Shown here: positions 10,825 to 56,504 of the stretch, one piece after another
Numbering within the stretch: the stretch's first letter is position 1
How the letters are laid out: each line of letters opens with the position of its first letter
Notes under the pieces: generated by a model
Told to the model about the DNA's origin: nothing
Seen by the model: only the letters and a program-made list of their open reading frames with translations
Database searches by the model: none
Source of the DNA: Candidatus Omnitrophota bacterium
Lineage (GTDB): Bacteria > Omnitrophota > Gorgyraeia > B26-G9
Length of the DNA stretch: 64,000 nt
NCBI GenBank assembly: GCA_043826565.1
Contig: JBDRPX010000019.1
Location: 5,369 to 69,368, forward strand
Direction of reading: 5' to 3'
Position numbers and translations under genes: made by a program

Positions 10825-10865
10825 TCAAAGCCTCATGTCTCAAGCCGCAAGTCTCAAGTTAAGAA

Positions 10866-10912
10866 GAATACAGAAGGCAGAAAACAGAGGACAGATAGAA
10901 AACTAGAAGATA
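10866..10912 (+). repeat. purine-rich 'ACAGAAGRCAGAAAACAGAGGACAGA' dispersed repeat, copy at the era 3' end
   Basis: Near-identical to the minus-strand sequence at 58030-58072. Related to the AGAAGAC x4 array at 51817-51850. Confidence 0.5.
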
Positions 10913-12871: not shown

Positions 12872-13141
12872 AGGGACTTTTGCAAAACGTCCATCTGCGG
12901 CGTTTTCTCCTCATTCGCTTGTGCGACGTCCTAGGAGAAGGACGCCTCCGCACTCATTCGTCAAGGCCTTGCATCTGTAATCAGGGACTGTTGTTCCATT
13001 TTCTACTTGACAGTTTAGGGTTTTTTTTGTAGTATAGAATAAAACTGTAAATGTAGTTTTATCAGGTTGTTCAGTTAAATATCCTATGGGTTCCCGTGGG
13101 GGGGATTTAATTTATCCAATACATTATGGGGGTAATCGGAA

Positions 13142-13657
13142 ATGCCGGAAGAACACAGTGTTAAAGAAGAAGTTCAGATGGTAATATTCAGGATCCAGGA
13201 TGAGGAGTTCGGGGTAGAGATAAGCCAGGTAAAAGAAATTCTAAAACTCGTTCCCATAACGCGAATGCCTAAAGCTCCGGTATTTATTGAAGGAGTAATA
13301 AATTTAAGAGGGCAGATAATCACAGTTGTTGATCTGGCAAAAAGATTTGATCTGGATTCTCTGGGGAGAACGGAAACAACCCGGATAATGGTTGTGGAAG
13401 TCGGAGAGAATACCGTAGGGATGATTGTTGATTCGGTTTCGGAAGTTATCAGGCTTTCAGCGAATAATATTGAAAAAACTCCCGCTCTTATTCAAAGCGG
13501 AATTCATGAACGGTATTTAAGAGGGGTGGGGAAAATTGCCGACCGTTTGTTGATATTACTGGATTTAAATGAAGTTCTTAGTACCGAGGAGCTGCATAAT
13601 ATCAATAAGCATATTGAGTCGGCAAGCGAAATAACAGAAAAAGACGAGATAAGTTAA
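13142..13657 (+). CDS. cheW: chemotaxis coupling protein CheW
   Basis: CheW-like domain: 'FRIQDEEFGVEISQVKEI...INLRGQIITVVDL'. Confidence 0.85.
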   Translation: MPEEHSVKEEVQMVIFRIQDEEFGVEISQVKEILKLVPITRMPKAPVFIEGVINLRGQIITVVDLAKRFDLDSLGRTETTRIMVVEVGENTVGMIVDSVSEVIRLSANNIEKTPALIQSGIHERYLRGVGKIADRLLILLDLNEVLSTEELHNINKHIESASEITEKDEIS

Positions 13658-18319: not shown

Positions 18320-18916
18320 ATGGCAGACTTGAGTGATGCTCAACTCGATGCACTGAAAGAAATGGGGAATATTGGTTCCGGTAACGCGGCTACCGCACTT
18401 TCCCAATTAATATCTTCACAAATAGATATTAGTGTCCCTTCTGTAAACTTTTTGCCTTTAGAAAATGTGGCAGATGTTCTGGGAGGCCCGGAAAAAATTG
18501 TTTATGTTATTTATCTTGAAGTTATGAGCCGAATGAACGGAACAATGGTTACAATTATTACTCCGGAGAGTGCGGAATTTTTGGTCAGTAAACTTATTAC
18601 AAATGAGAAGCTGGATAAGGATTCCGAGTTATATCAATCGGCATTAAAAGAAGTAGGATCGATTCTCTGTGGTTCTTATTTAAGTGCTTTAAGTCAGGTT
18701 GTCGGTGAAACTTTTATTGCTTCAGTTCCGGCAATGGCCTGCGATATGATGGGCGCGCTTCTCGACTTTGTTCTCACTGAGATCGGCCAGGTTGCCGAGG
18801 AAGCTCTCTTGATAGAGACAGAGTTATTTGTTTCGGATACTAAGGTGGAATGCTCGCAATTGTTTCTTCCTAAGCCCGGCTCTCTGGAAACATTGCTCGC
18901 TGCAGTTGGCATGTAA
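18320..18916 (+). CDS. second CheC/CheX-family phosphatase
   Basis: 'LKEMGNIGSGNAATALSQLI' CheC-type motif. 198 aa. Confidence 0.7.
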   Translation: MADLSDAQLDALKEMGNIGSGNAATALSQLISSQIDISVPSVNFLPLENVADVLGGPEKIVYVIYLEVMSRMNGTMVTIITPESAEFLVSKLITNEKLDKDSELYQSALKEVGSILCGSYLSALSQVVGETFIASVPAMACDMMGALLDFVLTEIGQVAEEALLIETELFVSDTKVECSQLFLPKPGSLETLLAAVGM

Positions 18917-18924
18917 TTTGTTAA

Positions 18925-19100
18925 AAAGTTAAAATGCAAAAATCAAAACTCAAAAATACAAGTCAAAAATCAGAATTGATAAAAAATTATTATAAAGAAA
19001 TGATTTTTAAATATTTTATAACACATAATAATAGATTAATTAATGAGTTTTAAATTTTGAATTGCAATTTTGACTTTTGAATTTTAAGTTTTGACATAAG
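18925..19100. repeat. inverted pair of A-rich 'TCAAAA/TTTTGA' heptamer arrays flanking an AT-rich core
   Basis: Left arm 'gcaaaaatcaaaactcaaaaatacaagtcaaaaatcag', right arm 'caattttgacttttgaattttaagttttgac'. Confidence 0.5.
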
Positions 19101-19153
19101 GTTGAATTTATTAAAAATATTGTTTAACATTAGATAGTTTCGGGAGATAGTTA

Positions 19154-21301
19154 ATGTTTGATAAAAAAGATCTCATATTTTCGTTAGATATCGGAACCCG
19201 CAAAGTAGTCGGTATTGTTGCGCAAAAAAATGAAAGCTCTATTCAGGTAATTGATGTGGAAGTCGTAGAGCATTCTTCCCGGACAATGCTTGACGGACAA
19301 ATACATAATATTAATGAAGTTGCCAAGATCGTCGATATTATTAAGGGAAGATTGGAAAAGAGACTGGATATCTCTTTGCACAAGGTCGGAGTTGCTGTTG
19401 CCGGCCGCGCCTTACGTACAGTGCATGCGAAAATTGCCAAAGATCTTTCCTTGGATGAAGAAATAACCGAAGACGCGGTGCGCAATCTTGAATTAGAGGC
19501 AGTAAGCAGTGTCCTTCATGAAGCGAATCATGATTTTGGCCAGGGGGATTATTATTGTGTGGGATATAGTGTGGTGTATTATGAGCTTGATTCGGCGGTT
19601 ATGGGAAATCTGGTCGGGCATTTTGGCCGGAATATGGCGGTTGAAGTTATTGCTACTTTTCTGCCCCGGGTTGTTTTAGACAGTATGTTAAGCGTATTGC
19701 GTAAGACCGGACTGGAAGTGATTAATCTTACCTTAGAGCCGATCGCGGCAATTAATATTATGATTCCGCAGGATATGCGGCGCTTGAACCTGGTGCTTGT
19801 TGATATCGGCGCCGGGACTTCTGATATAGCCTTGACCCGGGGGGGCAGTGTTGTTGCTTATGGTATGGTCCCGGAAGCCGGAGATGAAATCACCGAGCTG
19901 ATTTGTGAGAAATTCATTCTGGATTTTACTTCCGCGGAAAAAATAAAAAGATTAGTTTCCAGCCAGGCCAAAGTGGAATTCCAGGATATTTTGGGGAAAT
20001 CCTATAGGCTTGATTCTCAGGATATTATCGAGGTTATCCATGATCGTGTGCAGGCATTGGCGCGTTCTATATCAGATTGTATCCTGGAACTTAACCAGAA
20101 TGTGCCGCATGCGGTTATTTTAGTCGGAGGGGGCAGCCTTACTCCTCTATTAAATAAAGCTATTGCCTGTGCTTTGCCATTGGATGAGAATAAAGTCGGG
20201 ATTCGTATGCCGGAAATGATCCAAGGAGTGCAGGATAAAACCGGAAAGTTAAAAGGTCCGGATATGGTTACTCCGATAGGGATAAGTGTTATGACCGCCC
20301 AGTCTCGCGGTTTAAAATTTATTGATTTGTATGTAAATGAAAAGCGGATCCACGTTTTGGACATGCAGCAAAATATGGATATTATAAGTGCGCTGGTTGC
20401 TGCCGGGGTAGACAAATATAAATTATATGGAAAAATAGGAAAAGCTATTTGTGTTGAACTTAATGGCCAATTAAAGATAATTAAAGGCAAGACGGGAAGA
20501 CCCGCCCGGTTTAAGCTTAATGATAAACCGGCAGAACTAACCGATAGTGTAAAAAATCAAGACCGGATTACTTTTGAAGGAGCCCAAGACGGTGAAGATG
20601 CGATGGCGAAAGTTAAAGATATTATTGATGTTACAACTATTAGGGTTATGGTCAATGAAGAGCCTGTGGAAATCAAGCCCAGAATATTTATTAATGATGT
20701 TTTAGTAACCGAAGAAGAGGATTTAGTTGACCGGGCTTGTATTGAATTTGATCCGGAATTTGAAGTAAGAGAAGTTTTGGAAAAAGCCGGGATTAATACC
20801 CTGTCTTTAGAGGATAGAGAGATTGTTGTCCGGGTTAATAAAGAGCCGCGGATTTTAACCCAAAGCAACTATAATTTAATGATCGAGGGTAAGCGCGCTA
20901 CTTTAAACTCAAAAGTTATCGATGGAAGTGTTATTGAATTTGATAAAGAGCATGCTCAGTTCTACCGGGTAAAGGATGTCGTGGAAGTCCCGGAGAATGG
21001 CCGGAATATAAGGGTTGTATTTAATGACAAGCAATGTATGTTAGATGGAAATCACGGGAAGATTTTTATGAACGGACAGAAGGTCGATGCCGATGAATTT
21101 CTTATTGACCGGGCGGAGATTATTACCAAGCCTGGAGGAAATATGCTGCCGACTGTATCTCATTTGTTAAAATATTTCCCGGTTGATTCTGATGAATATA
21201 AGGGGAAAATCCTAAAGATTGCTGTCAACGGAGAGCCGGGAGGTTTTACAACACAGCTTTCCGAAGGAGCAGAAGTAACGATTTGTTTTGTCCACAGATA
21301 A
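19154..21301 (+). CDS. FtsA-like actin-fold (ASKHA) ATPase with a ~330-aa C-terminal extension of tandem ~60-aa repeats
   Basis: 'LDIGTRKVVGIVA', 'LVLVDIGAGTSDIALTRGGSVVAYGMVPEAGDEIT' and 'ILVGGGSLTP' align to the FtsA phosphate-1, phosphate-2 and adenosine motifs. The C-terminal half contains repeated 'V.VN.EP' units (IRVMVNEEPV / VVRVNKEPR / IRVVFNDKQ / IAVNGEPGG). Confidence 0.65.
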   Translation: MFDKKDLIFSLDIGTRKVVGIVAQKNESSIQVIDVEVVEHSSRTMLDGQIHNINEVAKIVDIIKGRLEKRLDISLHKVGVAVAGRALRTVHAKIAKDLSLDEEITEDAVRNLELEAVSSVLHEANHDFGQGDYYCVGYSVVYYELDSAVMGNLVGHFGRNMAVEVIATFLPRVVLDSMLSVLRKTGLEVINLTLEPIAAINIMIPQDMRRLNLVLVDIGAGTSDIALTRGGSVVAYGMVPEAGDEITELICEKFILDFTSAEKIKRLVSSQAKVEFQDILGKSYRLDSQDIIEVIHDRVQALARSISDCILELNQNVPHAVILVGGGSLTPLLNKAIACALPLDENKVGIRMPEMIQGVQDKTGKLKGPDMVTPIGISVMTAQSRGLKFIDLYVNEKRIHVLDMQQNMDIISALVAAGVDKYKLYGKIGKAICVELNGQLKIIKGKTGRPARFKLNDKPAELTDSVKNQDRITFEGAQDGEDAMAKVKDIIDVTTIRVMVNEEPVEIKPRIFINDVLVTEEEDLVDRACIEFDPEFEVREVLEKAGINTLSLEDREIVVRVNKEPRILTQSNYNLMIEGKRATLNSKVIDGSVIEFDKEHAQFYRVKDVVEVPENGRNIRVVFNDKQCMLDGNHGKIFMNGQKVDADEFLIDRAEIITKPGGNMLPTVSHLLKYFPVDSDEYKGKILKIAVNGEPGGFTTQLSEGAEVTICFVHR

Positions 21302-24484: not shown

Positions 24485-24494
24485 CCTAAAGTTA

Positions 24495-24550
24495 AAAATC
24501 AAAAATCAAAAGTCAAAAGTCAAAATGACAAATCAAAATTCAAAAATAAT
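24495..24550. repeat. 'AAAATCAAAAGTCAAAAGTCAAAATGACAAATCAAAATTCAAAA' heptamer array
   Basis: Tandem (A/G)TCAAAA units between xerC and the likely waaA start. Confidence 0.5.
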
Positions 24551-27924: not shown

Positions 27925-28165
27925 CAAGAAGTTACAGATAGCTCAAAAGTTAAAATTCAAAATTCAAAATTGCAATTAAAAAATCAAAAGTTTAAAGATA
28001 CAATTGTTGAATATTATTGCGTATAAAATTATTGAAAACAAGAATGCTAAGTGTAAAAATGACATTAAGATGAATAACTTTTTAATTTTGCCTTGCCCGC
28101 CTAGCTGAGCTGGCGAGGCTGGCATTTTTGACATTTGCCTTTTGAGTTTTGATTTGGCAACTGGT
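27925..28165. repeat. inverted 'TCAAAA' heptamer arrays plus an embedded GC-rich hairpin motif (28085-28125)
   Basis: 'ctcaaaagttaaaattcaaaattcaaaattgcaattaaaaaatcaaaag' ... 'ttttgacatttgccttttgagttttgatttggc'. The core 'cccgcctagctgagctggcgaggctggc' matches 21335-21395. Confidence 0.5.
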
Positions 28166-28441: not shown

Positions 28442-31400
28442 ATGTTTAAATCAAGAAAAATTACAAAGGTAATTGCTGGCATTGTTCTGCAGGTGTTTTT
28501 CTTTTCAAATTTTGCTTTGTGCGGGGATATGAATATGTCTCCTGATAGGGTGCGGAAATCAGATACCCTTGCCCCCCATATCGCGATAGGAATATCTTCG
28601 ATGCAGCAGATGTTTGCAGATACAGTATATCCTAGATGGTCAGCCGGCCGGCAGCAGCTTTCCGTAAATACCGGTGCTAGCGAGAAAGTTTCAACAATAC
28701 ATACCATAGATAATTTAAAACAAAAAGTTAAAGCCGGTAAATCAAAAGGAGTTATTTTGGTAGCCGGAGGCGCCGGATATATCGGAGGGCATACTGACCG
28801 TGCTTTAATGCAATCCGGTTATGATATTGTAATTTTGGATAACCTGGTAAATGGCCGGCGTTTTGTAGTTGAGCGTAATCAGGCTTATGCTCAGGATAAT
28901 GATAAAATTTGTGTTTTTGAACAAGCAGATTTAAAAAATAGTGAAGATGTTCTCAAAAAATATAAAGAAGCGGGAATACCGATTGTCGGAACAATTCATT
29001 TTGCGGCATACATTGAAGTGGGAGTGTCCGTAGAGCGTCCGTGTGTTTATGCTTTAAATAATATTATTAATACTCTCCGGCTGCTTTATGCCGCAAAGAA
29101 ATATGGAGTTAAAAATATTGTATTTTCTTCGTCAGCCGCTGTATATGGGACTCAGAAGAAAATGCCTCTAGAGGAAGGCCGAAGAAAGCACCCCACCAGC
29201 CCTTATGGATTTAATAAATGGGTTATGGAATTAATGATTAAATCATTCCAGAAGCTGGGTATGTCTTGGATTGCCTTGCGTTATTTTAATGCTGCCGGGG
29301 CTGCTTCCGACGGAGCTTTAGGAGAATCTCATCCTCTTCCGGATTCACATGTAATCAGAGCGGTTTTTCGTAGATTTTTAGATGGATTGGCCGCGGCAAT
29401 ATTCGGCCGGGATTATCCCACGGCTGACGGTACTTGTGAACGTGATTATATCCATGTTGAGGATTTGGCAGACGCGCATGTCCGGGCAATTGAAGCTTTA
29501 ATTAACGGAAAAAACCAGGAAGCAATTAACCGAGCATATAATGTCGGAACCGGTGAAGGTCTTTCTGTGTTGGAGATGATTGGTCTGATTACTAAACTAA
29601 TGGGTAAGGTAGTTAAAAAATTCTTTGTCCGGGAAGAAGCCCGTCGAGCTGGTGATCCGCCGGCTTTGGTCGCCGATTCCAGTGATATTCAAAGGAACCT
29701 GGGATGGAAAGCAATGCGTGATCCGCAGGTAATTGTAAAATCAGCGATTAAATGGGATATTTCTCCCCGTCAGCCGGAAGAAATTTATGAACCAAAGCCG
29801 CTTCCGAATATCTCAGAGTATGATGCTTATCAGGAAATCAAAAAAGTTTTAGCAGAAGATAAATTGCTGCCTTTGGGAGTAAAACTTTATATTAAGTGGA
29901 AACTTTTATGGGAGATTAGAACGGCATTAAAGCAGCGTTATGCTAAGGCGGTTAAGTTACTTAAGGCCAAACAGAAAATATATGCGGATAATTCTGACCT
30001 GCAGAAGATGATCAGTGCAAATCTTTTCTTGTTAGAAAAATATAAATGGATTAGCATTGCTGACTTAAGTTTGTTTGGTAAAGGATCAGCTTTTGAAAGA
30101 ATGGATTCTCTGCTTCGTTTTATCGAAAAAGTTCAATGGCCTAAATTAGATAAACTTCCGGAAGATAAAGCTGAGCGTGAGCAATATATTCTTCAAGATC
30201 CGATAGTTGCTGATTGTAAAGCCCAAGAAGCTGTAAAAAATACTTTTTCTTATGATCAGGGGCATGTATTTGATTATTGGCTTCAGTTAAGCAGTGAGGG
30301 AAAAAAGGAATTGTTGGGTTGTCTTACGGTGATTAATTTTGAAGAAGCGTTTAGGCTTTATCAGGAAAACGTAAAAAATAAACAGGATATTAAAGTTGAT
30401 TTCGAATCATTGCATGCGCCGTCAAATATGATGACTGCCGAAGAGGCATTGGCAAGTAATCAGCATTTAATGGCAAATGCTTTACGCATGGGTAAAGTCG
30501 CGGTTTATTTACTTGCCGGAGGCAGCGGAACGCGTTTAGATTATGACCATCCTAAAGGGATGTTTGAGTCCAGCCCATTAAGCGGAGCTTCTTTATATCA
30601 GCAGTTTGCGGATGAGGTTAGGGAGTTGGGTAATCGTTACGAAGCAAAAATACCTTTACTTGTGCAGACTAGTGAAGGCACGGATGAAGAAACAAAAGTA
30701 TTCTTTGCCAATAATAATGATTTTGGGATCCAGGATTCTACCCGGTTTGAACAGCAGCGGAGTTTTCCGGTATTTGATAAAGACGGAAAATTTATTCTGA
30801 CGACAAAGAGTTCTATTCAGATCGGCGGTTTTGGTCATGGAGATGTTACGGATTTTGTTTTACGGAAAAACGACGTGCGCGGCTGGCTGCAGGATAATTT
30901 TGGGACAAAATATGTACTCATGGTTCAGGTGGATAATCCGCTTGCGGTTAAGCAATTAGAGGCAATGTTAGCGGCGCATTTAAAGGATGAACAGCAGCGC
31001 GCATATAATGCTCCGGAAAATGCCGCACATATCAGTTATGGGCTTATTGAAAAACTGGCCCCGGATGACCGGTTGGGAAATCTGGCGGAAACTGAAGAGG
31101 GTTTGTGGCAGATGGTTGAGTATTCGGAAGTCGATCAGCTAAGTGAAGCGGCAAAAAAGAAGATTGTTTCTGATGTGGGCAGTCCGAATATTTTAATGAT
31201 AAGTTTAGACGGTTTAGATAAATTGCCGGCACTTTCAGTGCATGTTGACCGCGGCAAAAAAGTTTTTTCAATGCAGGCCGAGGGAAAGGTTCCCGGAGAT
31301 AAAATGGAAACATTTGTTTTTGATACCCGGGCTTATGGCGCGGCAGTGGTCTTACCTAGATACAGCTCGTTTGCTCCGACTAAGAAAAGAGAGCGTGATG

Positions 31401-33169
31401 CTGCCGGTGTTTTAGCTGATGAAAGCAGGCTTACTGCTGTGGCGGTGCAGTCATATCATCATGCTAAGCAGTTAGAGAAAAAAGGCTGGATAATGCCTGA
31501 TATAGTGGTAGAAGAGGTAGAGGGTAAGTTTGTCCAAAGATATTCGGCACTTGTAGAAATGACTCCGGAGTTTTCCATTGGACAGATTGGCAGTAACGGA
31601 TTTTTAAATCCAGATGGAGGAACTCTTTTCTTAAGCGGAAACAGAACACATATTGGAGATAATTGTCGGATAGAGGGTGGATTATATATTGATGTAAAAA
31701 AGACCGGGGGGCCGCTGGTTGGCGGCGTAGTAAATATCGGTGATAATGTAACTTTTAAAGGTAATGTAAAAATTACTGTGCATGGACATGGAGTAATTCA
31801 TATCCCTGCCGGAGTAACTGTTGATCATGATATTACGGTTTTTGACGGAGAAGTTGTAACCTTATTTAATGAGTCTTTTGAGGGAAGACGGAATAAGGAA
31901 GCGCTGCAGTTTGCCGAGATGATGTTTAAAGACAGCGCGTCTAGTCAGGCAGCGTATGAATTCTTAAAAACCAATAAAACCATTATTAATACTTTTGCCG
32001 GAACATTAAAGGTAGAGTTAGTTCCGGATACTGATCGTATTTCCTATTCCGTGATTATTTCCGCCCGGAATAAAAACAATGACGGCTGGCAAAGAGTCGG
32101 CAATCTGCCGTTTACTTATTTTAGTTCTTTTGAAAATGGCCGGCAAATGGTTACTTTTCCTGATGCAAATGATATTGTTGATGAAAAATGGGTGGGAGTG
32201 GTCGAAGATTATTTGATGATGTTTGCGCTTACTTTTGGAGCGTTTAACGGGGTGAGGTCGCAGGATATTGTTAATGACAGTATTGATCGTAATTTTCTTA
32301 TGCGTTTAGGCTATGATCAGGCAAATAAAATATCTAAGGCCGGAGAAAAGATTGAAGTGATCAGATTTAATCTGCGCGAATTTTCCGCGCTTATGGATCG
32401 AGAACGTTTAACCGAAAGCTCTGTACTGCCTCAACAGAAAAAACTAGGCAGAGTCGATGATGGTTTTGAGGTAGTCGATGAGGTAAAAGCAGTATTTATT
32501 GATATCGGCGGTGTTTTAATCGCGCATGATTTCAGGAAACAGGCAAAAAATCTTAAACAGGCAGCGGGAGATACTAAATATTCGGTTGAGTGGATTGAAG
32601 AACAGTTAAGAGATGAGAGATTTTTAGCGCCTTATGAAAGCGGGGTTATAGACACTCAGGAGTTTTATCGTAGAGTAAAAGCTTTGTTTGGTTGGAATAA
32701 GTTGAGCTATGAAGATTTTGTTAAAGCTTATTTGGATATATATAGTCCGAATCGGGATAATATTGCTGCCTTGCGCAGATTAAAATACGCAGGTTATGAA
32801 ATTTATCTGGTGACCAATGCTGGCCCTTTGGTAAAAGAATTTTGGATGGAAACTTTTCCGGAGATGCATAACTTAGCCGACGGTGTTATTGCTTCCTGTG
32901 AGGTCGGGGTAATGAAGCCGGTTAGAGCGATTTATAAAGGAGCATTAAGAGTTGCCGGAATAGCCGATCCCCGACAGGTTATTTATATTGATGATGTCTA
33001 TGCTAATATTATCGGTGCTGAATTAGAGAAGATGAATGCACTTAAGTATAATCGAGGAAGTGACCTGGGAAATCTGATAAACACTGAGTTTACGAGAATA
33101 ATAACGCATAGTACTGTGGCCCTGCAGCGTATTAAGCTGGCGGTCCAGCTGATCAGCCAGTCAATTTAA
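28442..33169 (+). CDS. 1575-aa multidomain protein: signal/anchor peptide + NAD-dependent UDP-sugar 4-epimerase (GalE-like) + eukaryotic-type UDP-sugar pyrophosphorylase (UAP1/AGX family) + left-handed β-helix + HAD-like hydrolase domain
   Basis: GalE region: 'VAGGAGYIGGHT' Rossmann motif and the 'YGFNKW' YxxxK catalytic motif. UAP1 region: 'VAVYLLAGGSGTRLDYDHPKGMFE' matches the UAP1/UGP 'L(L/N)GG(Q/L)GTRLG..PKG' signature. β-helix region: imperfect hexapeptide repeats around 'IGDNCRIEGG...VNIGDNVTFKGNVKI'. HAD region: 'VFIDIGGVLI', 'YLVTNAG', 'IYIDDV' HAD-like motifs. Confidence 0.75.
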   Translation: MFKSRKITKVIAGIVLQVFFFSNFALCGDMNMSPDRVRKSDTLAPHIAIGISSMQQMFADTVYPRWSAGRQQLSVNTGASEKVSTIHTIDNLKQKVKAGKSKGVILVAGGAGYIGGHTDRALMQSGYDIVILDNLVNGRRFVVERNQAYAQDNDKICVFEQADLKNSEDVLKKYKEAGIPIVGTIHFAAYIEVGVSVERPCVYALNNIINTLRLLYAAKKYGVKNIVFSSSAAVYGTQKKMPLEEGRRKHPTSPYGFNKWVMELMIKSFQKLGMSWIALRYFNAAGAASDGALGESHPLPDSHVIRAVFRRFLDGLAAAIFGRDYPTADGTCERDYIHVEDLADAHVRAIEALINGKNQEAINRAYNVGTGEGLSVLEMIGLITKLMGKVVKKFFVREEARRAGDPPALVADSSDIQRNLGWKAMRDPQVIVKSAIKWDISPRQPEEIYEPKPLPNISEYDAYQEIKKVLAEDKLLPLGVKLYIKWKLLWEIRTALKQRYAKAVKLLKAKQKIYADNSDLQKMISANLFLLEKYKWISIADLSLFGKGSAFERMDSLLRFIEKVQWPKLDKLPEDKAEREQYILQDPIVADCKAQEAVKNTFSYDQGHVFDYWLQLSSEGKKELLGCLTVINFEEAFRLYQENVKNKQDIKVDFESLHAPSNMMTAEEALASNQHLMANALRMGKVAVYLLAGGSGTRLDYDHPKGMFESSPLSGASLYQQFADEVRELGNRYEAKIPLLVQTSEGTDEETKVFFANNNDFGIQDSTRFEQQRSFPVFDKDGKFILTTKSSIQIGGFGHGDVTDFVLRKNDVRGWLQDNFGTKYVLMVQVDNPLAVKQLEAMLAAHLKDEQQRAYNAPENAAHISYGLIEKLAPDDRLGNLAETEEGLWQMVEYSEVDQLSEAAKKKIVSDVGSPNILMISLDGLDKLPALSVHVDRGKKVFSMQAEGKVPGDKMETFVFDTRAYGAAVVLPRYSSFAPTKKRERDAAGVLADESRLTAVAVQSYHHAKQLEKKGWIMPDIVVEEVEGKFVQRYSALVEMTPEFSIGQIGSNGFLNPDGGTLFLSGNRTHIGDNCRIEGGLYIDVKKTGGPLVGGVVNIGDNVTFKGNVKITVHGHGVIHIPAGVTVDHDITVFDGEVVTLFNESFEGRRNKEALQFAEMMFKDSASSQAAYEFLKTNKTIINTFAGTLKVELVPDTDRISYSVIISARNKNNDGWQRVGNLPFTYFSSFENGRQMVTFPDANDIVDEKWVGVVEDYLMMFALTFGAFNGVRSQDIVNDSIDRNFLMRLGYDQANKISKAGEKIEVIRFNLREFSALMDRERLTESSVLPQQKKLGRVDDGFEVVDEVKAVFIDIGGVLIAHDFRKQAKNLKQAAGDTKYSVEWIEEQLRDERFLAPYESGVIDTQEFYRRVKALFGWNKLSYEDFVKAYLDIYSPNRDNIAALRRLKYAGYEIYLVTNAGPLVKEFWMETFPEMHNLADGVIASCEVGVMKPVRAIYKGALRVAGIADPRQVIYIDDVYANIIGAELEKMNALKYNRGSDLGNLINTEFTRIITHSTVALQRIKLAVQLISQSI

Positions 33170-34384: not shown

Positions 34385-34387
34385 AAT

Positions 34388-34553
34388 ATATGAAAATTAT
34401 AAATTACAAATTACAACTGCCAAATTACAAACAAATTCCAATATACAAATAACAATAAACAAAAATATTTTGTGTTTTGAAATTTGGGAATTGTATATTG
34501 CTTGTAATTTGGATTTTGTTTATTGTAAATTAACAATTGCACTATTTATGAGG
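34388..34553. repeat. ~150-bp intergenic element, copy 2 (paralog of 4795-4950)
   Basis: Near-identical 45-nt block 'ttgggaattgtatattgcttgtaatttggattttgtttattgtaa', ending about 25 nt before the start codon of the NYN/YacP-like gene. Confidence 0.5.
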
Positions 34554-34558
34554 TTTTT

Positions 34559-35050
34559 ATGTCCCTCCACTATATAATTGATGGATATAATGTTATCAAG
34601 CAGGTTACTTTTTTAACCGGTAAAAAACTTAGAGACGGAAGAGACGGGCTGGTAAGATTTATTGAGAAATACCGTCCTCAGGGAAGCGCGAAGAATGAAG
34701 TAACGATTGTTTTTGACGGTAAAGCGGAGATCAGCAGCCCGGCGATACAATCATCCGTACAGGTTATCTTTAGTAAGAATGAGACCGCGGATGATAAGAT
34801 AAAAAGGATGGTAGAGTCTGCCGGTAATTCCCGGCAGATGGTTATTGTCAGTGATGATAAGGAAATCATGTTTTACTGCCGTTCTTTAGGGGCGAATGTA
34901 AAATCCGTAAAGGAGTTTTTAGATAGTTCTTTTGCGGCTAAGAACAGGCTCAAACCTGCGGAAAAAATAGAGAAGGCAGAATTAAGCAGTGATATAGCGG
35001 ATAAAATTACTGAAGATCTAAAAAAACTTTGGCTGAATAAAGAAAATTGA
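34559..35050 (+). CDS. NYN/YacP-like (PIN-related) putative ribonuclease
   Basis: 'LHYIIDGYNVI' N-terminal motif typical of the YacP/NYN domain. 163 aa. Confidence 0.6.
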   Translation: MSLHYIIDGYNVIKQVTFLTGKKLRDGRDGLVRFIEKYRPQGSAKNEVTIVFDGKAEISSPAIQSSVQVIFSKNETADDKIKRMVESAGNSRQMVIVSDDKEIMFYCRSLGANVKSVKEFLDSSFAAKNRLKPAEKIEKAELSSDIADKITEDLKKLWLNKEN

Positions 35051-35180
35051 AAGTTGAATATTGAAAGTAGATAGGCGAAAAAATATTTTTTTAATTTTAC
35101 AATTTTCAATGTTTAATTTTCTATAGTCAGTTTTTATTTTTTTACAATTCTCAACTTTCAACTGTCAATATTCATATTAT
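35050..35180. repeat. inverted 'TTGAAAGTTGA' repeat pair
   Basis: 'ttgaaagttgaatattgaaagt' ... 'caattctcaactttcaactgtcaatattc'. Confidence 0.45.
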
Positions 35181-42263: not shown

Positions 42264-45200
42264 ATGTTTATGTCTTCAAAAACCAACCTGTTTTTCAAAG
42301 TCATTTCTTTTATTATCATGCAGTCGTTTTTAATCACTAATATTTCCTTTGCTGCGGGAGGTAATTTTTTTGTTAATTCAGAAGAAAGGGGTTGTTTGTC
42401 ACCAGAGATGCAGATACCTAACCAAATAATGATGAGAGATTTTAAAAACCAGACGATTATTAAAGGAGATTTATCCCAACTTACTTCTATTTTACCTAAA
42501 GCTATCATTGGTGAAGATGAGGCATATGAACAGTTAAAACGTTTAGCTTTAACTACTCCTGAAACTTTGATCGAATATTTTGAAGCTCAGTTACCTGAGG
42601 CTATTGAAGCGATGACAGAATCTATGTTTGGTAAGGGATTTGGTTATGATGTGCGCGGAAATGCCTGGGAAGTAGCTTCCGGTGAAGTAGATTTAACTCC
42701 TTTGAGTTGTTATTTGATCGGAAAAGCGCTGGCCACAAGATATGCCGAACAGGGAGAAGGTGTCGAATTTACCGGAGACCAGAGAATACATACGCCGATG
42801 TTAAGACTGGCATTATCTCTCGGAGCGCAGTCTGCCGGAGCAAAGCTGTTTTTTAGTGATGAGATTGTCGGTACCGGTGAACATGGGATATTATCCGGAG
42901 AGAATCCTAATAATGTTAAGGTTATGGGGCAGGTTTCCGGATCTCACGGTATTCCGGCAAAGAATGGTTTTAAACTAAAAGTAATAGATCCTAAAACCGG
43001 CCAGTTAGAACCGCTGTATGGGAAAGAATTAGCTAATCTGTATACTTTGATTAAAAGCGGGAATTTAAGAACAGTAGAAAGTTTTATTCCGCTGACAGAG
43101 CAGAATGATCTTATTGAAAAAGCAGTAGATGCTTATGATAAGACATTACCCCAGGTGTCAGTTGATCAGCCGGTAGTTTTTGATTGCCGTAATTCAGCAT
43201 TAACTACAGTATTAAAAAAGATAGTTGAAAAAAGAGGATTGAAGAATGTATTCTGGCTGAATGATACCCCGGATGGAAGAATGCCGGGTGGAATTTGGGA
43301 CCCTTCTAAACCGGAAGCTTTGGTTGCTTGCCAGAATAAAGTTCTGGAGATTAATGCTTCAGGACAGTTTAAGAAAAAAGCCATAGGATTTGTGTTTGAT
43401 GGAGATGGAGACCGGGCGGCAGCGATTTTAGAGGATGGAAGAGCAGTTCCTTCTTTTGAAATGACCCTTCCTTTTTATCAGAGATTGTTCTCTGATCCGA
43501 TTAATCAGGAAGTAATGAATACACTGATTAATGCCGGATTTGATAAGATATGGGCAATAACCGATATTCGCGCTAATTCCCGTTTAAAAAATATGTTTCG
43601 CAGGTATTCTGACTGGATAACCGGTAAATATATTACTACGGGATATCCGCCGCAAAGAGCGGTTGTACGTCATATATTTAGTGAAATAGAAAAATATGTT
43701 GCCGCCAACCCAAGCAAGTTTGATGCTGGTTTTGCGGAAAAGCTTAGACATTTTAAGACCACATATTTTACGGCAGAAGCATCCGGCCATCAGTTTTTTC
43801 ATATTTGTCCAAATTATCCGGAAAAAGTAATTGATGCGGGTATCGCCGTAGCTTTTAATTTATTGCATATTAAAGAAACAATTCAGGATGTAGAAGCTAA
43901 GGATGAAAAAGTCGGATTATCGGCAGGACAAGATTCTTATTTACTGACAGAACTTTTTGATCATTTTCCTCCGGCGATCAGTTCCGGAGAAGTCAGGATC
44001 GTTGTGCCGAATTCAATTAAGTTTGAAGTAACCGATGCGATGATTGTTAAATTAAAAGAAAAATATGCGGATGATTTTTTACCGACCCCTCTGGGAACAG
44101 TTGATATGGGGGATTACTTATTGCAGGATATGGATGAAGGAAAAGTAGAAGTTGCCGGATTTTTGGGGTTACTTAAGACCGGCGGCAGCTTTTTGTTTCG
44201 CGTATCAAATACCGGTGAGCAGTGTACATTGATATTTGAAGGCGGAGATATTCAGGAGCTTATTAGGCTGATGGAAGAAATGAAACAGTTGGTTTTAGAT
44301 ACTAAAGCTGAATTTGAAGCAGACGCATCAACTGCGGAAGCGGCAAAAAATATTAAAGTCGATGATTTGGAAAAGGAAATTCAAATGACAATTGAAGCGG
44401 CTGAAGAAATAACTCCGGCAGCTCCGATAGTTATTAATACTGCTACTCTACAGGCTGATTCTTTAGGTGCTTTAAGCCTGAGTAATGGCGAAATTGCCGA
44501 TGTTAATAGGACGATGGAAGGTATCCAAAGAACAATGCAATTTGAAGATAATGATGTGACTACCGAGCTTGGCCGTCAGAGGTTGTTAAAGAACTGGCGC
44601 GGTTGGGTGTTTGGAGAACAGGAATGGGCAAACCAGGGAATTGAAGATACTGTTACGGTAGCTCAGAAAGTTCGTGATGATAATCCTGAGGCATTTGTGG
44701 TTGTTGGTGTCGGCGGATCAGATCAGACAACAAAGGGAATTGTTAATGCCAATATCAGTACTCAGCATAATCTGCTTTCTAAAGAAGCTAGAGGCGGGGC
44801 TCCGATGTTATTCTACACCGGTGATGGTTTTGATCCGAATAGTACCTATGATACATTACAGGTTCTTGATGAAAAAGGGATTTTGTTTAAAACAAAATTC
44901 AATATAATTTCTAAATCCGGAACTACCGGGGAAACAGCGCATGCTTTCCTGGTTATTAAAAGTTATCTTGAAGTTAGATTAGAACAGCTTGCTGTGCAAT
45001 ACGCGGCACGTCAGATAAAGGACAAAGACTTAGAAGCTATGGGTTTAACTGCTAAAGATCTAGAGAAAGTAACATTGAATTATACAGTAAAATTAGATGC
45101 CGGAGAAGAAGCTGTCACAGAAGAAACTTTCCGTACCGGGCGTTTCTTTGTCTTTACCACAGGCTTAAATGATAAGAGCGCATTGTATAATTATGTTCAG

Positions 45201-46103
45201 CTTATTCGTGAACAGGCAGGTGATGATGTGTTTGGATTATTGCCGGTTCCGGATGGTACCGGAGGAAGATACTCTTTTGGTACAGCCGTGGGTATGCTGG
45301 CGATGGGAGTAATGGCAAATACAAGCAAGGGAGAAACTCCGGAAAGCAGAATAAGACAGGTATTAGAGGCGATAAAAGATGTGCGTAACGAAATTTTAAA
45401 CGGTAGTGTTGAAGGTGATAATGTTCCTTCATTTGCTATTGCCCGGGCTAATTATTTAGCAGAAAAACACGGCTTAGGAACAGTGGCGATATATCCGTTT
45501 GCAAATATGTTACAGGAATTTGCTAATCTGATGATGCAGCTTTCTACAGAATCAATTCGGGAAAAGGGTCAGGGACAGAATATTCTTCCGTTGGTTGGTC
45601 CTTCACGTAACCACTCTGTAGTGAATGGAATTATTAATGGGCCCAGAGATACCATCATATGTTTTATTGAAGTTGCTGCTTTTGACCCGGCAAAAGATGC
45701 AACTATTACTGGTGGAAAAGTACTTGGCGGAAGCTTAATGCAGCTGGAGCAATTAAAACAGTCTGATATCCAGAAGGCATCTTTGGATGGGACTCTTAAG
45801 GATGCGATTGAAAAGGGTGTGCCGGCTTACAAGATTACAATTCCGGCTTTAACTCCGTATTATGTAGCTAAGTTAATTGCTTATTTTGAGCATGAAGTAG
45901 CTATTGAAGGAATGCTTAGAGGACTTAGAGAGCCTTCGAATGCAGAAGGTGTTTATGTTGATTTAACCTATTTGCAGTCTAGTGTTGAAGGATATAAGGC
46001 TCAGACCCGTGCTATCTTAAGTGAGATAAGAGCAGCTAAGTTTGGACCTGTCCAGACATCAGCTAATCGTGACATGGTTAGTGTAGTCGGTAGTTCCATA
46101 TAA
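42264..46103 (+). CDS. 1279-aa fusion: signal peptide + α-D-phosphohexomutase (PGM/PMM/AGM family) + glucose-6-phosphate isomerase (PGI)
   Basis: Phosphohexomutase region: active-site-loop-like 'VSGSHGIPAKNGFK' and Mg-binding 'FDGDGDRAA'. PGI region: SIS 'VVVGVGGSDQT' and signature 'PDGTGGRYSFGTAVGM'. N-terminal 'MFMSSKTNLFFKVISFIIMQSFLITNISFA|AGG...ERGCLSPEM'. Confidence 0.75.
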   Translation: MFMSSKTNLFFKVISFIIMQSFLITNISFAAGGNFFVNSEERGCLSPEMQIPNQIMMRDFKNQTIIKGDLSQLTSILPKAIIGEDEAYEQLKRLALTTPETLIEYFEAQLPEAIEAMTESMFGKGFGYDVRGNAWEVASGEVDLTPLSCYLIGKALATRYAEQGEGVEFTGDQRIHTPMLRLALSLGAQSAGAKLFFSDEIVGTGEHGILSGENPNNVKVMGQVSGSHGIPAKNGFKLKVIDPKTGQLEPLYGKELANLYTLIKSGNLRTVESFIPLTEQNDLIEKAVDAYDKTLPQVSVDQPVVFDCRNSALTTVLKKIVEKRGLKNVFWLNDTPDGRMPGGIWDPSKPEALVACQNKVLEINASGQFKKKAIGFVFDGDGDRAAAILEDGRAVPSFEMTLPFYQRLFSDPINQEVMNTLINAGFDKIWAITDIRANSRLKNMFRRYSDWITGKYITTGYPPQRAVVRHIFSEIEKYVAANPSKFDAGFAEKLRHFKTTYFTAEASGHQFFHICPNYPEKVIDAGIAVAFNLLHIKETIQDVEAKDEKVGLSAGQDSYLLTELFDHFPPAISSGEVRIVVPNSIKFEVTDAMIVKLKEKYADDFLPTPLGTVDMGDYLLQDMDEGKVEVAGFLGLLKTGGSFLFRVSNTGEQCTLIFEGGDIQELIRLMEEMKQLVLDTKAEFEADASTAEAAKNIKVDDLEKEIQMTIEAAEEITPAAPIVINTATLQADSLGALSLSNGEIADVNRTMEGIQRTMQFEDNDVTTELGRQRLLKNWRGWVFGEQEWANQGIEDTVTVAQKVRDDNPEAFVVVGVGGSDQTTKGIVNANISTQHNLLSKEARGGAPMLFYTGDGFDPNSTYDTLQVLDEKGILFKTKFNIISKSGTTGETAHAFLVIKSYLEVRLEQLAVQYAARQIKDKDLEAMGLTAKDLEKVTLNYTVKLDAGEEAVTEETFRTGRFFVFTTGLNDKSALYNYVQLIREQAGDDVFGLLPVPDGTGGRYSFGTAVGMLAMGVMANTSKGETPESRIRQVLEAIKDVRNEILNGSVEGDNVPSFAIARANYLAEKHGLGTVAIYPFANMLQEFANLMMQLSTESIREKGQGQNILPLVGPSRNHSVVNGIINGPRDTIICFIEVAAFDPAKDATITGGKVLGGSLMQLEQLKQSDIQKASLDGTLKDAIEKGVPAYKITIPALTPYYVAKLIAYFEHEVAIEGMLRGLREPSNAEGVYVDLTYLQSSVEGYKAQTRAILSEIRAAKFGPVQTSANRDMVSVVGSSI

Positions 46104-46742: not shown

Positions 46743-46830
46743 TAAGAAGTAAATAAAGTAGCGAGTAGCAAGTAGAGAGTAGCGAGATAAAAAATAATAA
46801 GAAGCCCGAGAAAAGAGGTAGAGAAGAAAA

Positions 46831-48531: not shown

Positions 48532-48534
48532 ATA

Positions 48535-48732
48535 AATTAAAAGTCAAAAATCAAAGGTCAAAAGGCAAAAGTGCAACTCAAAATTCAAAACTAGTTAAAC
48601 AGTAGGAAAGATAACTGAGATTAGTGAAATATTGAGGATGCTTACTGCAGGAAGATTACAATCGAAGAACAAAAAGTTTTTATTTTTAAATTATATTTTT
48701 GAGTTTTGAATTCTAAATTTTGAGTTTTAACA
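48535..48732. repeat. inverted pair of 'TCAAAA' heptamer arrays
   Basis: 'aaagtcaaaaatcaaaggtcaaaaggcaaaagtgcaactcaaaattcaaaac' ... 'tttgagttttgaattctaaattttgagttttaac'. Confidence 0.5.
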
Positions 48733-51314: not shown

Positions 51315-51820
51315 AAAAGTCTCCGGTCACAGGTCACAAGTCACAAGTAAAAAAAATAAACAAAATACAAAAAGAGATTATTTGTTTCTTGCAAGGGGAT
51401 ATTCCCCTAAAGCCTAATCCGTATACTGGCTTAGCAAAAAAACTTGATATTGCCGAGGATGAAATTATCCGGCAGATAAAAGTATTAAAAAAACAAGGAT
51501 ATATCCGGAGGTTTGGCGCGATTTTAAGTCATCACAAGGTCGGCTTAAACAGCAATTGTATGTGTGTCTGGAATGTGCCTAAGCTTAAGATAAACAAAAT
51601 ATCAAAAGGCGCATTCGGAAGACCGGAAATTAGCCATTGTTATCTAAGAAAGACTACCCCGGATTGGCCGTATAATTTTTATACCATGATACACGCTGGT
51701 TCACCGAAGCAGTGTATGCAGATAATCAATGAACTTAGTAAACAGAATGGTGTTAGTGATTATAAGATGCTGTTTACAAAAAAACAATTTAAAAAAACCA
51801 GTCCGGTGTATAAAATATAG
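51311..51820 (+). CDS. siroheme decarboxylase second subunit (AhbB/NirG-H family)
   Basis: 'ICFLQGDIPLKPNPYTGLAKKLDIAEDEIIRQIKVLKKQGYIRRFGAIL' paralogous HTH + ligand-domain layout. ATGA overlap with the upstream gene. Confidence 0.65.
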   Translation: MKKSPVTGHKSQVKKINKIQKEIICFLQGDIPLKPNPYTGLAKKLDIAEDEIIRQIKVLKKQGYIRRFGAILSHHKVGLNSNCMCVWNVPKLKINKISKGAFGRPEISHCYLRKTTPDWPYNFYTMIHAGSPKQCMQIINELSKQNGVSDYKMLFTKKQFKKTSPVYKI

Positions 51821-51905
51821 AAGACAGAAGACAGAAGACAGAAGACAGAAAGAATACTAGATACTAAAATTTTTTAAATTTCTGACCTCTGTTTTCTGAT
51901 ATCTG
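51817..51905. repeat. AGAAGAC x4 tandem heptamer array followed by an inverted copy of the 'CAGAAAACAGAGGNCAGA' motif
   Basis: 'agaagacagaagacagaagacagaagacagaaag' ... 'tctgacctctgttttctgatatctg' (reverse complement 'cagatatcagaaaacagaggtcaga'). Confidence 0.5.
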
Positions 51906-51935
51906 ATTTCTTTAGATTGAAAGGAAGAGAAAGTT

Positions 51936-53222: not shown

Positions 53223-53374
53223 GCTATAAGGATTAAGAAAAAGTTACGAGTAACAGTTTAAAAGATAAAAGCAGTTTAATCTCAGGATATGCTTTTAAAA
53301 AATTGTTTTTATGTCTTGGATGTTGAGATTTGTTTGTCTGCCGGGAAGCGAGATCTCGCCAAGGGCGGATAATT

Positions 53375-53510
53375 CGGGAATTGCAAATATCAAAATGACA
53401 GAGAAAAATGAAAAAAGAAGTTAAAAAGTACTATAATCAATGTTAATGTTTTTTATTTTTGACTTTTAACTTGTCATTTTGCATTTTGACTTTTGATTTT
53501 TGAGTTAATA
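53375..53510. repeat. inverted pair of 'TCAAAA/ATGACA' A-rich arrays upstream of tatA
   Basis: 'caaatatcaaaatgacagagaaaaatgaaaaaag' ... 'tttttgacttttaacttgtcattttgcattttgacttttgatttttgag'. Confidence 0.5.
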
Positions 53511-55941: not shown

Positions 55942-55946
55942 TTTGC

Positions 55947-56474
55947 TTACCAGTTGAAGTTTTTCGGTTCGGAAGTCAAATCGCTTTTTTTCTTTGTTTC
56001 TTTTTGAATGATTTTTTTTGTTTTTTTTACGTTCTTATATTCCAGTTCTGTTTTGAGGTCCCGGATTTCATTCTGCAAACGCAAAATATTTTCTTTTTCT
56101 CTGGTAAGTTCCTCGCCTAAAGATTTATTTGTATTTTTGAAAATCCGTAATTCTTTTTCTATATTATTATACTTCTGTTCAAAAGCAGTGAGCTTTTTCT
56201 CAAGGGCAAGGCTTTTTCCCTGTGCCGCGGCTAAGTCCTGCTGCGCTTTTTTGGTTGTTTTTTTTAAGTCAGCACATTCATTTGTTGTTTTTTTTAAGTC
56301 GGAAGTAATCACAGTATTTGCTTTAGTTAAGGATTTTAACTTATCGTACAGATCACTGCTTTTATCCAATTCAACTTTCTTCCTGGATGTTGAGCCGATT
56401 GCCCAAAGAAGACTGATTATGCTGATGACAAAAAACACCGCAAGAATCTTTTTTAAAGAAGACTCGTTCATCAT
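55947..56474 (-). CDS. membrane-anchored coiled-coil protein (hypothetical)
   Basis: N-terminal TM helix followed by heptad-rich K/E/L sequence. Confidence 0.4.
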   Translation of the reverse strand: MMNESSLKKILAVFFVISIISLLWAIGSTSRKKVELDKSSDLYDKLKSLTKANTVITSDLKKTTNECADLKKTTKKAQQDLAAAQGKSLALEKKLTAFEQKYNNIEKELRIFKNTNKSLGEELTREKENILRLQNEIRDLKTELEYKNVKKTKKIIQKETKKKSDLTSEPKNFNW

Positions 56475-56504
56475 TGTTTTACTCTTGGTTTAGCAGCAAC
56501 TAGG

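Follow-up and report, generated by a model that had tools for sequence, protein, structure and literature searches.

The junctions and the repeat unit

The subject of this study is a 64-kb stretch of DNA from a metagenome-assembled genome (MAG) of Candidatus Omnitrophota, referred to below as the window, and a short repeat built from TCAAAA heptamers that lies in five of its intergenic spacers. By a simple gene map, coding sequence takes up 90% of the window and 9.6% is non-coding. The genes next to the arrays (encoding CheC, WaaA, a 1575-aa multidomain protein, HemB (ALAD) and TatA) are those named in an original prediction made from the letters of the window, and the arrays lie, as it had stated, between genes and at operon junctions; all copies in the window are non-coding save the one at 24488-24548, whose sequence runs into the 5′ end of waaA. 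That the arrays are real and not the compositional noise of AT-rich DNA was borne out by counting. The pattern TCAAAANTCAAAA, with up to one mismatch allowed, has 32 matches in the window compared with 2.68 ± 1.61 in 100 dinucleotide shuffles of it (0/100 shuffles reach 32), and 28 of the 32 sit within the five spacers named beforehand. Tandem Repeats Finder (TRF) reported period-7 arrays at 5/5 of these loci.

What had been described as open-ended runs of heptamers turned out instead to be a fixed composite unit of about 50 nt, which we call an arm. A profile search and alignment together place eight to nine arms at the five loci in 64 kb (Table 1). The nine-arm alignment has a common layout of four to five TCAAAAN heptamers, one 6-nt element T(G/T)(A/G)CAA and two to three NTCAAAA heptamers, the A-rich strand of the unit reading AAA-(TCAAAAN)x4-5, T(G/T)(A/G)CAA, (NTCAAAA)x2-3. 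A unit with its A-rich strand forward is termed an A-arm and the same unit inverted a T-arm. The uniform array with variable copy number that slippage would be expected to leave is not what is found, the composition being fixed at 4-5 + 1 + 2-3. By inspection of the sequence a single arm has no internal dyad symmetry, unlike the unit of REP, BIME or REPIN elements.

Table 1. Arms of the TCAAAA unit and associated features in the window (position 1 is the first nucleotide of the window)
Feature	Position	Strand	Composition	Profile match and scores	Flanking features
Arm A1	18921-18979	+	About 5 x TCAAAAN, ATACAA, 2 x NTCAAAA	18927-18979, E 1.8e-6	Starts 5 nt past the cheC stop codon (18916)
Core between A1 and A2	18980-19044		AT-rich, G+C 0.11 over the 72-nt inner loop measured		
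Arm A2	19045-19100	-	4 x TCAAAAN, TTGCAA, 2 x NTCAAAA	19045-19096, E 1.6e-9	Outer end 58 nt 5′ of the ftsA-like gene start (19154); promoter-like TTGACA-16-AAAAAT at the outer end (pattern match only)
Solo arm B1	24488-24548	+	5 x TCAAAAN, TGACAA, 2 x NTCAAAA	24496-24548, E 8e-11	Directly 3′ of the xerC stop codon (24484)
Arm C1	27940-27993	+	4 x TCAAAAN, TTGCAA, about 3 units	E 4e-7	119 nt past the stop of the TonB-dependent receptor gene
Terminator-like site	28109-28123 (to 28133 with T-run)	+	G+C-rich stem-loop, then ATTTTTGACA		Abuts arm C2
Arm C2, truncated	28124-28152	-	Outer half of the unit only, model positions 4-28	28124-28148, E 1.1 over all sequences searched; local search E 3.5e-4, 9.2 bits	
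Arm D1	48534-48595	+	5 x TCAAAAN, GTGCAA, 2 x NTCAAAA	48541-48595, E 6e-8	Starts 3 nt past the trkH stop codon (48531)
Arm D2	48673-48732	-	Degenerate full-length unit, model positions 4-58	48673-48726, E 0.076; local search 14 bits, E 1e-5	Outer end adjoins the AGGAGG ribosome-binding site and ATG (48744) of hemB
Possible arm-centre remnant	53384-53400	+	CAAATATCAAAATGACA, 17 nt, model positions 22-38	5.1 bits, not significant alone	
Arm E2	53455-53507	-	4 x TCAAAAN, TGACAA, about 3 units	E 2.8e-7	Outer end 17 nt 5′ of the tatA ATG (53525)

The loci had been described as pairs of opposed arrays around an AT-rich core of 60-90 bp. Opposed pairs are clear at three loci (18.9, 28.0 and 48.6 kb), although the right-hand member at 28.0 kb is half a unit lying beside a G+C hairpin; at 24.5 kb there is a solo arm, and at 53.4 kb the right arm is sound but the proposed left arm (53375-53400) comes down to a 17-nt remnant of 5 bits. 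The cores measured are 65-130 nt and not 60-90 bp. Short-read contigs from the same sample terminate at arms near 27.9 kb and 53.47 kb, the latter inside arm E2.

One consensus in about ten phyla

A 26-nt core of the unit, TCAAAANTCAAAATKRCAANTCAAAA, was searched against one genome per species of GTDB and the unit was found at at least 119 loci, all 119 of them from MAGs. Among the matches listed, the labels of the loci cover about ten phyla and are mostly Patescibacteria, the others being Dehalococcoidia, Chloroflexia, Omnitrophota, Nitrospirae, Latescibacterota, Zixibacteria, Phycisphaerales (Planctomycetes, with two matches on a 1.17-Mb contig), Spirochaetia, Bdellovibrionales and Gammaproteobacteria. 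The core pattern was also present in 21 viral-contig loci. In a control of 80 loci (996 kb) chosen only for encoding a TopA relative, arms were detected in one locus (L129), which is another Omnitrophota-like contig and is rich in heptamer arrays.

Conservation and reading-frame counts were made on 125 exact matches to the 26-nt core, among the matches listed. Beyond the core required by the search, conservation extends over two more heptamers in the 5′ direction and one more in the 3′ direction, with 1.0-1.8 bits at most non-N positions, and outside this extended unit the information content goes down to 0.2-0.5 bits. As heptamers that the search did not require are conserved and are followed by this drop, the unit is discrete and sharp-edged, with a length of about 50 nt. 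Each heptamer follows a 6+1 pattern of conservation (AAAA 1.7-1.8 bits, T about 1.1, C about 0.8 and N 0.3-0.4). A profile built solely from copies in other genomes, when run on the window, matches six of the window arms at E 1e-6 to 1e-10 and two more weakly.

There are lineage subfamilies of the unit, copies within a genome being slightly closer to each other (identity 0.845) than copies from different genomes (0.798; 0/500 permutations reach 0.845), and lineage-specific extensions of the unit are visible in Dehalococcoidia and in MAG AUK069. In the latter (loci L024, L035, L036, L057, L061, L074, L093 and L099) most of the examined copies lie at contig ends, which is what would be expected of a high-copy repeat that breaks the assembly. 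AUK069 also has an arm inside a longer repeat that consists of AAATCTC and AAATGTC arrays, the arm, a CCTCCCCCTCCC...GGGAGGGGGAGG hairpin and T-rich heptamers.

Comparison with related genomes

Three syntenic Omnitrophota relatives (L224, L225 and L226; WaaA 55-59% identical, 21 kb each) keep the gene order cheD-cheB-cheA-cheC-ftsA-like-topA-xerC-waaA and contain hardly any period-7 array and not a single arm. The junctions in them are also far shorter than those of the window: 0-22 nt compared with 237 nt between cheC and the ftsA-like gene, 12 and 23 nt (in two of the three) compared with about 40 nt to the annotated start between xerC and waaA, and an overlap or 5 nt (in the two relatives that carry the junction) compared with 174 nt between rlmN and yacP. 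The closest relative found, L121 (XerC 80% and TopA 73% identical), has no TCAAAA arm at xerC/waaA and carries GTAACTC x4 (L121 3638-3665) directly before the waaA ATG instead. The comparison with related genomes that had been proposed as a check therefore came out as presence/absence polymorphism at orthologous junctions, the arms of the window being missing from the same places in L224, L225, L226 and L121, all of them distant relatives. Because the syntenic relatives lack the unit and have far shorter junctions, the arms and their AT-rich cores are best read as extra DNA in the lineage of the window. The relatives compared are separated from the window by 55-80% protein identity, and the precise ends of insertions are not readable from them; a metagenome scan gave no close relative with a clean empty site (best TopA 73%, with exact-protein matches from one sample only).

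Facing pairs, cores and predicted structure

Adjacent arms in the order A-arm then T-arm were found 69 times, in 64 cases with a gap between -10 and 130 nt, while the opposite order (T-arm then A-arm) never occurs closer than 189 nt. In such a facing pair the A-rich arm lies beside the stop of the upstream gene and the T-rich arm beside the start of the downstream gene, and each arm, of about 50 nt, matches the reverse complement of its partner at about 73% identity, so that the two amount to terminal inverted repeats. The arms of a pair are nevertheless no more alike than arms taken from unrelated loci (identity 0.726 versus 0.734, and 0.457 versus 0.420 at variable positions), which argues that pairing is not the conserved feature. 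RNA folds pair the arms at the three paired loci with z values of -1.8, -1.7 and -2.1 relative to shuffles; the long imperfect hairpins that had been foreseen are thus predicted where there are pairs, but barely better than in shuffled sequence. Searches of Rfam gave no match at the gathering threshold for the whole window and none at E ≤ 1 for 18900-19160.

The loops are mainly short and AT-rich, and a G+C hairpin was seen in 6/40 of them where 1.1 would be expected. A G+C stem-loop with a U-run, as in an intrinsic terminator, was found at only one locus of the window (28109-28133), and a terminator module as the rule was rejected on the figure of 6/40. Rho loading was considered as well. A rut site is C-rich, unstructured RNA of 60-90 nt. 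An arm (47-50 nt) has six UC dinucleotides with 5-nt spacers, and the Rho-loading reading fails because this is below the published minimum, YC dinucleotides being required to have spacers of at least 7 nt (PMC5314796). A sigma-70 promoter was rejected also: the T-arms have -35-like hexamers without a conserved -10 after the arms, and promoter-like matches in the scanned region (37 versus 27.7 ± 4.3 in shuffles) are about 2 sd above expectation.

Copies within genes and the reading frame

The positions of 137 arms with sufficient flank relative to genes were classified. In the largest class (42) a gene ends no more than 30 nt from the outer edge, its stop codon often touching the unit; 34 arms are inside a long open reading frame (ORF), 29 have a gene start within 40 nt of the outer edge and 32 are placed otherwise. 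The outer ends of T-arms are 2-37 nt from a gene start in about 20/137 arms, often leaving no room for a Shine-Dalgarno sequence. An equal frequency of arrays inside coding sequence had been named as the result that would point to simple compositional bias; in the window no copy is inside a coding sequence, but elsewhere about 25% are within ORFs, and these are all in one orientation. Of the 125 exact matches 29 are inside long ORFs, in which the three frames are used 16, 7 and 6 times and the A-rich strand is the sense strand in every case. The T-rich strand is closed in all frames in 125/125 matches, since 7 = 1 mod 3 and three TTTTGAN units therefore place a TGA in all three frames, whereas the A-rich strand is largely without stop codons. 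In the frame in which the central TGACAA would give a TGA only TTA and TTG variants occur (7/7). In the frame reading ATG the TGACAA variant, which makes up 70% of all copies listed, is found in 0/6 in-ORF copies (L066, L072, L081, L083, L096 and L105); in this small sample an internal start amid A-rich sequence may have been selected against.

The hosts of in-frame copies are housekeeping genes, namely those for LeuRS, PolX, a CopA-type ATPase, TsaD, MnmA and ProRS. The predicted inserts are 16-17 residues long and rich in Lys, Asn, Gln, Ser and Ile (for example, peptides of the type IQNSKIKNQNDNSK). In LeuRS the copies are at differing sites in differing lineages. One loop of TsaD has, across homologues, a native short form (RGDVQKYK), intact units in one frame and decayed versions, and the tsaD gene of a Patescibacteria locus (L026) has three array-derived inserts. 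Related tsaD genes appear, from their sequences, to hold different heptamer arrays at one loop. At a second site in tsaD (homologues P0002-P0066) the protein reads NSKFKIQNSKF, which back-translates to (AATTCAA)n, or NFQFSIFNFQF, which back-translates to (AATTTTC)n.

In-frame copies in conserved genes of the kind known from Rickettsia palindromic elements (RPEs) are thus found elsewhere, and in the window only at the 5′ end of waaA. The start of waaA annotated by NCBI is the ATG at 24525, which lies within the TGACAA of arm B1, and an NCBI protein (P0121, from a Candidatus Omnitrophota MAG) is 100% identical to the WaaA of the window (444 aa). WaaA homologues, of which nearly all the named ones are from Omnitrophota, are about 420-428 aa long, and the WaaA profile match starts about 24 residues after the annotated start. 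The repeat thus appears to donate the waaA start codon and about 20 N-terminal residues. Where an ORF begins at a unit, the unit's own ATG or TTG shares the frame of the downstream ORF in 6/9 cases, which is suggestive in so small a sample.

How the unit may have arisen and spread

The reading that we put forward, giving it about an even chance of being correct, is that the unit is a non-autonomous interspersed repeat resembling transposable elements of the miniature inverted-repeat type (MITEs) or RPEs, which is filtered by its reading-frame properties and kept only where it is harmless. The unit would be a selfish repeat, copied and pasted or written from a template, and its distribution would have been shaped by selection. 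Its T-rich orientation would survive only between genes, owing to the TGA in every frame, and its A-rich orientation, being open in at least two frames, could be absorbed into protein loops, C-terminal ends and 5′ ends. Effects in cis would be secondary, the candidates being a U-rich leader, a donated start codon and the uncoupling of formerly adjacent genes. Of the three roles originally offered (binding sites for a nucleoid or regulatory protein, curved DNA upstream of promoters, and a MITE family) the last comes closest. Like a MITE, the unit is short, non-coding, multi-copy and interspersed, is missing in relatives and is shared with other genomes, but neither a target duplication nor a cognate transposase was found at the loci searched.

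The points that weigh against this reading concern both the mechanism and the pattern of variation. A transposase and a target duplication were not found at the loci searched: the longest flanking direct repeat has a mean of 3.71 nt compared with 3.55 ± 0.14 nt in shuffled pairings, and in the 8-kb loci searched, where five facing pairs are 338-2698 nt apart (three enclosing ORFs and two enclosing none), no transposase lies between the distant arms, the ORFs being housekeeping, pilin-like and four-helix-bundle ones. A solo arm offers no internal symmetry for a known transposase. The cores in the window are mutually non-homologous, core-to-core alignment scores being within the shuffled range, so that the picture is not that of a classic MITE, whose body would be conserved. 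At certain sites within genes the unit sequence swaps out a native loop of like length and is not a clean 48-nt addition. The variation is centred on the seventh position of the heptamer and looks like constraint to one consensus, not neutral decay, and the copies of the window resemble those in other phyla (identity 0.781) as closely as they resemble each other (0.784). Finally, period-7 arrays with several other units are found in the same genomes at junctions of the same kinds, and at xerC/waaA the heptamer array differs from one to the next of three related genomes and is missing from another three; differing heptamers at one junction hint at a process that makes arrays in place, and not only at ready-made insertion.

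Several other explanations were weighed. Rather unlikely in our judgement, but drawing on some of the same observations, is a cis-acting element in which each heptamer would be the site for a putative protein that binds single strands over 7 nt (of the cold-shock-domain or S1-like OB-fold type), and in which a U-rich arm in the 5′ leader would keep the start region open, or recruit or occlude ribosomes, and would spread because it is useful. The 6+1 conservation, the similarity of window copies to those of other phyla and the closeness of many T-arm ends to gene starts (in the window at hemB and tatA) are all consistent with this, as are the (TTCAAAA)3-4 arrays upstream of 21 genes of Nostoc PCC 7120 (bioRxiv 10.1101/2022.06.06.494920) and the report, as cited in PMC4679880, of CspB on heptamer repeats with one protein per heptamer. 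Yet the largest class of arms has the A-rich strand past a stop codon, which a T/U-preferring binder would not use, a quarter of the copies are within ORFs, and relatives dispense with the unit at the same junctions. Among readings that invoke an array of binding sites, such a 7-nt single-strand binder fits better than a nucleoid protein. Sites in double-stranded DNA, that is, iterated operators for a regulator or nucleoid protein or curved upstream DNA, seem to us highly improbable. The motif is iterated and at operon junctions, T-arms hold -35-like hexamers (TTGACN, TTGAAT) every 7 bp, and there is a 10/12 promoter-like match at 19091-19118, but promoter-like matches are little above those in shuffles, no -10 follows the arms, and a regulator common to about ten phyla and tolerated inside ORFs is unlikely. 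Moreover a spacing of 7 bp turns successive units by about 240 degrees, so that by reasoning (not by computation) the bends of the A-tracts would cancel over three units and dimeric binders would be poorly served; the curved DNA originally suggested was rejected on this phasing argument alone.

A structured element, whose arms pair as RNA or as extruded DNA to form a bidirectional terminator or a hairpin for RNase processing or stabilization, is in our view very unlikely. It would account for the folds of minimum free energy, which pair the arms at all three paired loci, for the single arm order seen, for the excess of G+C hairpins in loops and for the hairpin with T-run at 28109-28133, and in AUK069 the arms flank a CCTCCCCC...GGGAGGGGG hairpin. 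Set against this are the modest fold z values, the absence of covariation between arms, a partner arm that is often of a TGTAAAA type mismatching every heptamer, the solo and in-ORF arms, which cannot pair, the 34/40 loops that lack a G+C hairpin, and the negative Rfam result. Heptanucleotide microsatellites arising de novo by slippage in an AT-rich genome, at loci without common descent, are likewise improbable as the source of the unit. The window does have 25 arrays with a period of 7 and three copies or more, and the unrelated units among them number at least six; 20 of the 25 are non-coding and 22 lie within 25 nt of a gene boundary. Some of these arrays are perfect (for example, AGAAGAC x4.6 at 51819-51850), relatives have different units at xerC/waaA, and heptanucleotides are the commonest class of long simple-sequence repeat in many prokaryotes (Mrazek 2007, as cited in PMC4679880). 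Slippage does not, however, predict a fixed 4+1+2 arrangement with a 6-nt centre and sharp edges in more than 100 genomes of many phyla, nor variation limited to one of seven positions, nor 32 occurrences of a two-heptamer pattern where 2.7 are expected. It may still hold for the other heptamer arrays. A last idea, which we regard as doubtful, is that the composite unit and its sister arrays (ACAGAAN, AAATTAC, GTAACTN and AGTTATA among others) are the footprint of a horizontally transferable system that writes or drives heptamers. The agent might, with no greater confidence, be a template-copying polymerase or reverse transcriptase, a transposase of a new type or a biased DNA-uptake drive, of which uptake signal sequences are an example. 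Such a system would deposit cassettes, or pull sequences toward a fixed form, at junctions and permissive loops, and its hosts would include Patescibacteria, Omnitrophota, Chloroflexota and cyanobacteria. It would explain the single consensus in all phyla, the missing target duplication and transposase, the replacement of native loops, the differing heptamers at one junction and the all-or-none lineages.

Other heptamer arrays and features of the window

Several of the other arrays share the layout of the TCAAAA unit, with a purine- or A-rich arm past a stop and an inverted arm before the next start, and some heptamer flavours turn up again at several loci of the window and in viral contigs or other phyla. 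A second family with this layout, (A/T/G)CAGAAN, is present at 10861-10895, 51819-51911 and 58005-58058 (minus strand), and its flavour occurs also in L226 and in the viral contigs L202, L208, L211 and L213. Its perfect AGAAGAC array at 51819-51850 begins where the ORF that ends at 51820 has its stop, an inverted array of TTTCTGA type precedes hemL, and the array at 58005-58058 apparently encodes the C-terminal end of the ORF at 58000-59184 on the minus strand. The rlmN/yacP spacer (34385-34558) and the next spacer (35042-35174) are filled by inverted arrays of AAATTAC type and of GAAAATT with TTTTCAA, and the AAATTAC flavour is also found in MAG AUK069 (L024, L061). In L129 (9354-9394 / 13122-13154) AGTTATA x6 fills xerC/waaA and its last unit, GGTTATG, holds the waaA ATG, and in a relative ACGAATC x4 ends 2 nt before an ATG. 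Further arrays in the window are AAGCTGT x4.4 at 53200-53230, which overlaps the last codons and stop of hemL and has TAA in all frames of the sense strand, and AGTAGCG x4.3 at 46757-46786, in the spacer 5′ of trkH.

Some other features were recorded. At about 55900-56500 the genes switch from the plus to the minus strand and the GC skew, which starts at about +0.2, falls to about 0 or lower; a replication terminus or the edge of a rearrangement could lie here. At 60377-60485 there is a tandem repeat with a period of 45 bp (2.4 copies, 81% matches), which has no relation to the heptamer arrays; it covers the 5′ end of ORF 60467-61798 (minus strand) and part of the adjoining spacer. The 1575-aa protein encoded at 28442-33169 is a fusion with GalE-like epimerase and HAD phosphatase parts, and a second fused protein (1279 aa, 42264-46103) has PGM/PMM and faint PGI matches, its counterpart in L224 being 2185 aa.

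Relation to known repeats and significance

The facing pairs are similar to the Correia and NEMIS MITEs in their size (about 100-200 bp), non-coding nature, copy number, inverted arms, location at gene junctions and presence/absence polymorphism. They differ in having no target-site duplication and no cognate insertion sequence in the 8-kb loci, a non-conserved interior and frequent solo arms. Correia and NEMIS elements can donate promoters, terminators or start signals. RPEs are 100-150 bp long, restricted to a genus and inserted as whole palindromes; they have no transposase of their own and their copies are in various stages of decay. Ogata and colleagues are said to have described them in 2000 as short selfish repeats that lie between genes and, in frame, at permissive loops. 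The unit resembles them in combining in-frame copies in conserved genes with intergenic copies, but to judge from descriptions of RPEs it differs in being built of heptamers, in that one arm alone enters ORFs and in a host range that spans phyla. REP, BIME and REPIN elements, which have an associated RAYT transposase, do not match, since the arm is not an imperfect palindrome of 20-40 nt. The cyanobacterial STRR sequences have units richer in G+C (CCCCAGT and others) in uniform arrays, and we know of no cross-phylum conserved composite unit described for them. As far as can be taken from Mrazek (2007) as cited in PMC4679880, STRR and other long simple-sequence repeats share with the present arrays a period of seven, a mostly intergenic location, coexisting unit types and lineage specificity. 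As in heptanucleotide repeats generally, the 7-nt copies studied here are head to tail, mainly intergenic and close to gene boundaries.

Two published sets of start-adjacent heptamers are closer. TAACTGA heptamers just 5′ of starts were described by MacGregor (2015) from Beggiatoaceae, Cyanobacteria and Bacteroidetes; she could identify no mechanism by which they had spread, and the candidate binders that she suggested were cold-shock or S1 proteins (PMC4679880). Those arrays are, like ours, intergenic, a few nucleotides upstream of starts and often in the place of the Shine-Dalgarno sequence, patchy over distant phyla in a way that suggests horizontal spread, and provided with stops in all frames (PMC4679880). 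They differ in the sequence of the unit and in being uniform direct repeats of 2-6 copies (up to 43) and not composite, and one indirect repeat was reported (PMC4679880) compared with 69 facing pairs in the loci examined here and facing pairs at 3/5 window loci. The arrays that Pradhan et al. found upstream of the 21 Nostoc genes have the same heptamer as ours, as (TTCAAAA)n and (TTTTGAA)n, in both orientations and no farther than about 100 nt from a start codon or -10 box. Their function was left unresolved, a role in recF transcription or translation being only speculated upon and the reporter effects coming from the deletion of a different heptamer array, upstream of recO (bioRxiv 10.1101/2022.06.06.494920). 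In Nostoc too other heptamer arrays coexist, such as GAC(C/T)AAT x8 overlapping the recO start, and a binding protein was merely postulated. Copies of this Nostoc type, with at least three contiguous copies of the same heptamer near a start, are present in the window at hemB, tatA and waaA. By the description in the paper, however, the Nostoc arrays are plain runs of 3-4 units in one cyanobacterium, with no 50-nt composite, facing pairs, in-ORF copies or cross-phylum spread. The composite unit, the facing pairs, the in-ORF copies and the spread over many phyla are described by neither MacGregor nor Pradhan et al. In the full-text literature, searches with the sequence strings returned unrelated primer matches only, and a search for MITE with Patescibacteria returned no paper on such repeats.

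In practical terms the unit breaks short-read assemblies, can mislead gene callers on the position of starts and exaggerates the low-complexity insertions apparent in candidate phyla radiation proteins. The family also provides a much larger and better-defined data set, with natural relatives that have or lack the unit and in which a trans-acting factor might be sought, for the puzzle of start-adjacent heptamers in Beggiatoaceae and cyanobacteria. If the reading as an interspersed repeat is correct, a non-coding sequence of 50 nt would keep one consensus across about ten phyla of mostly uncultured bacteria, and the family would expand compact genomes at their gene junctions, insert residues into LeuRS, TsaD, MnmA and PolX, and supply start codons.

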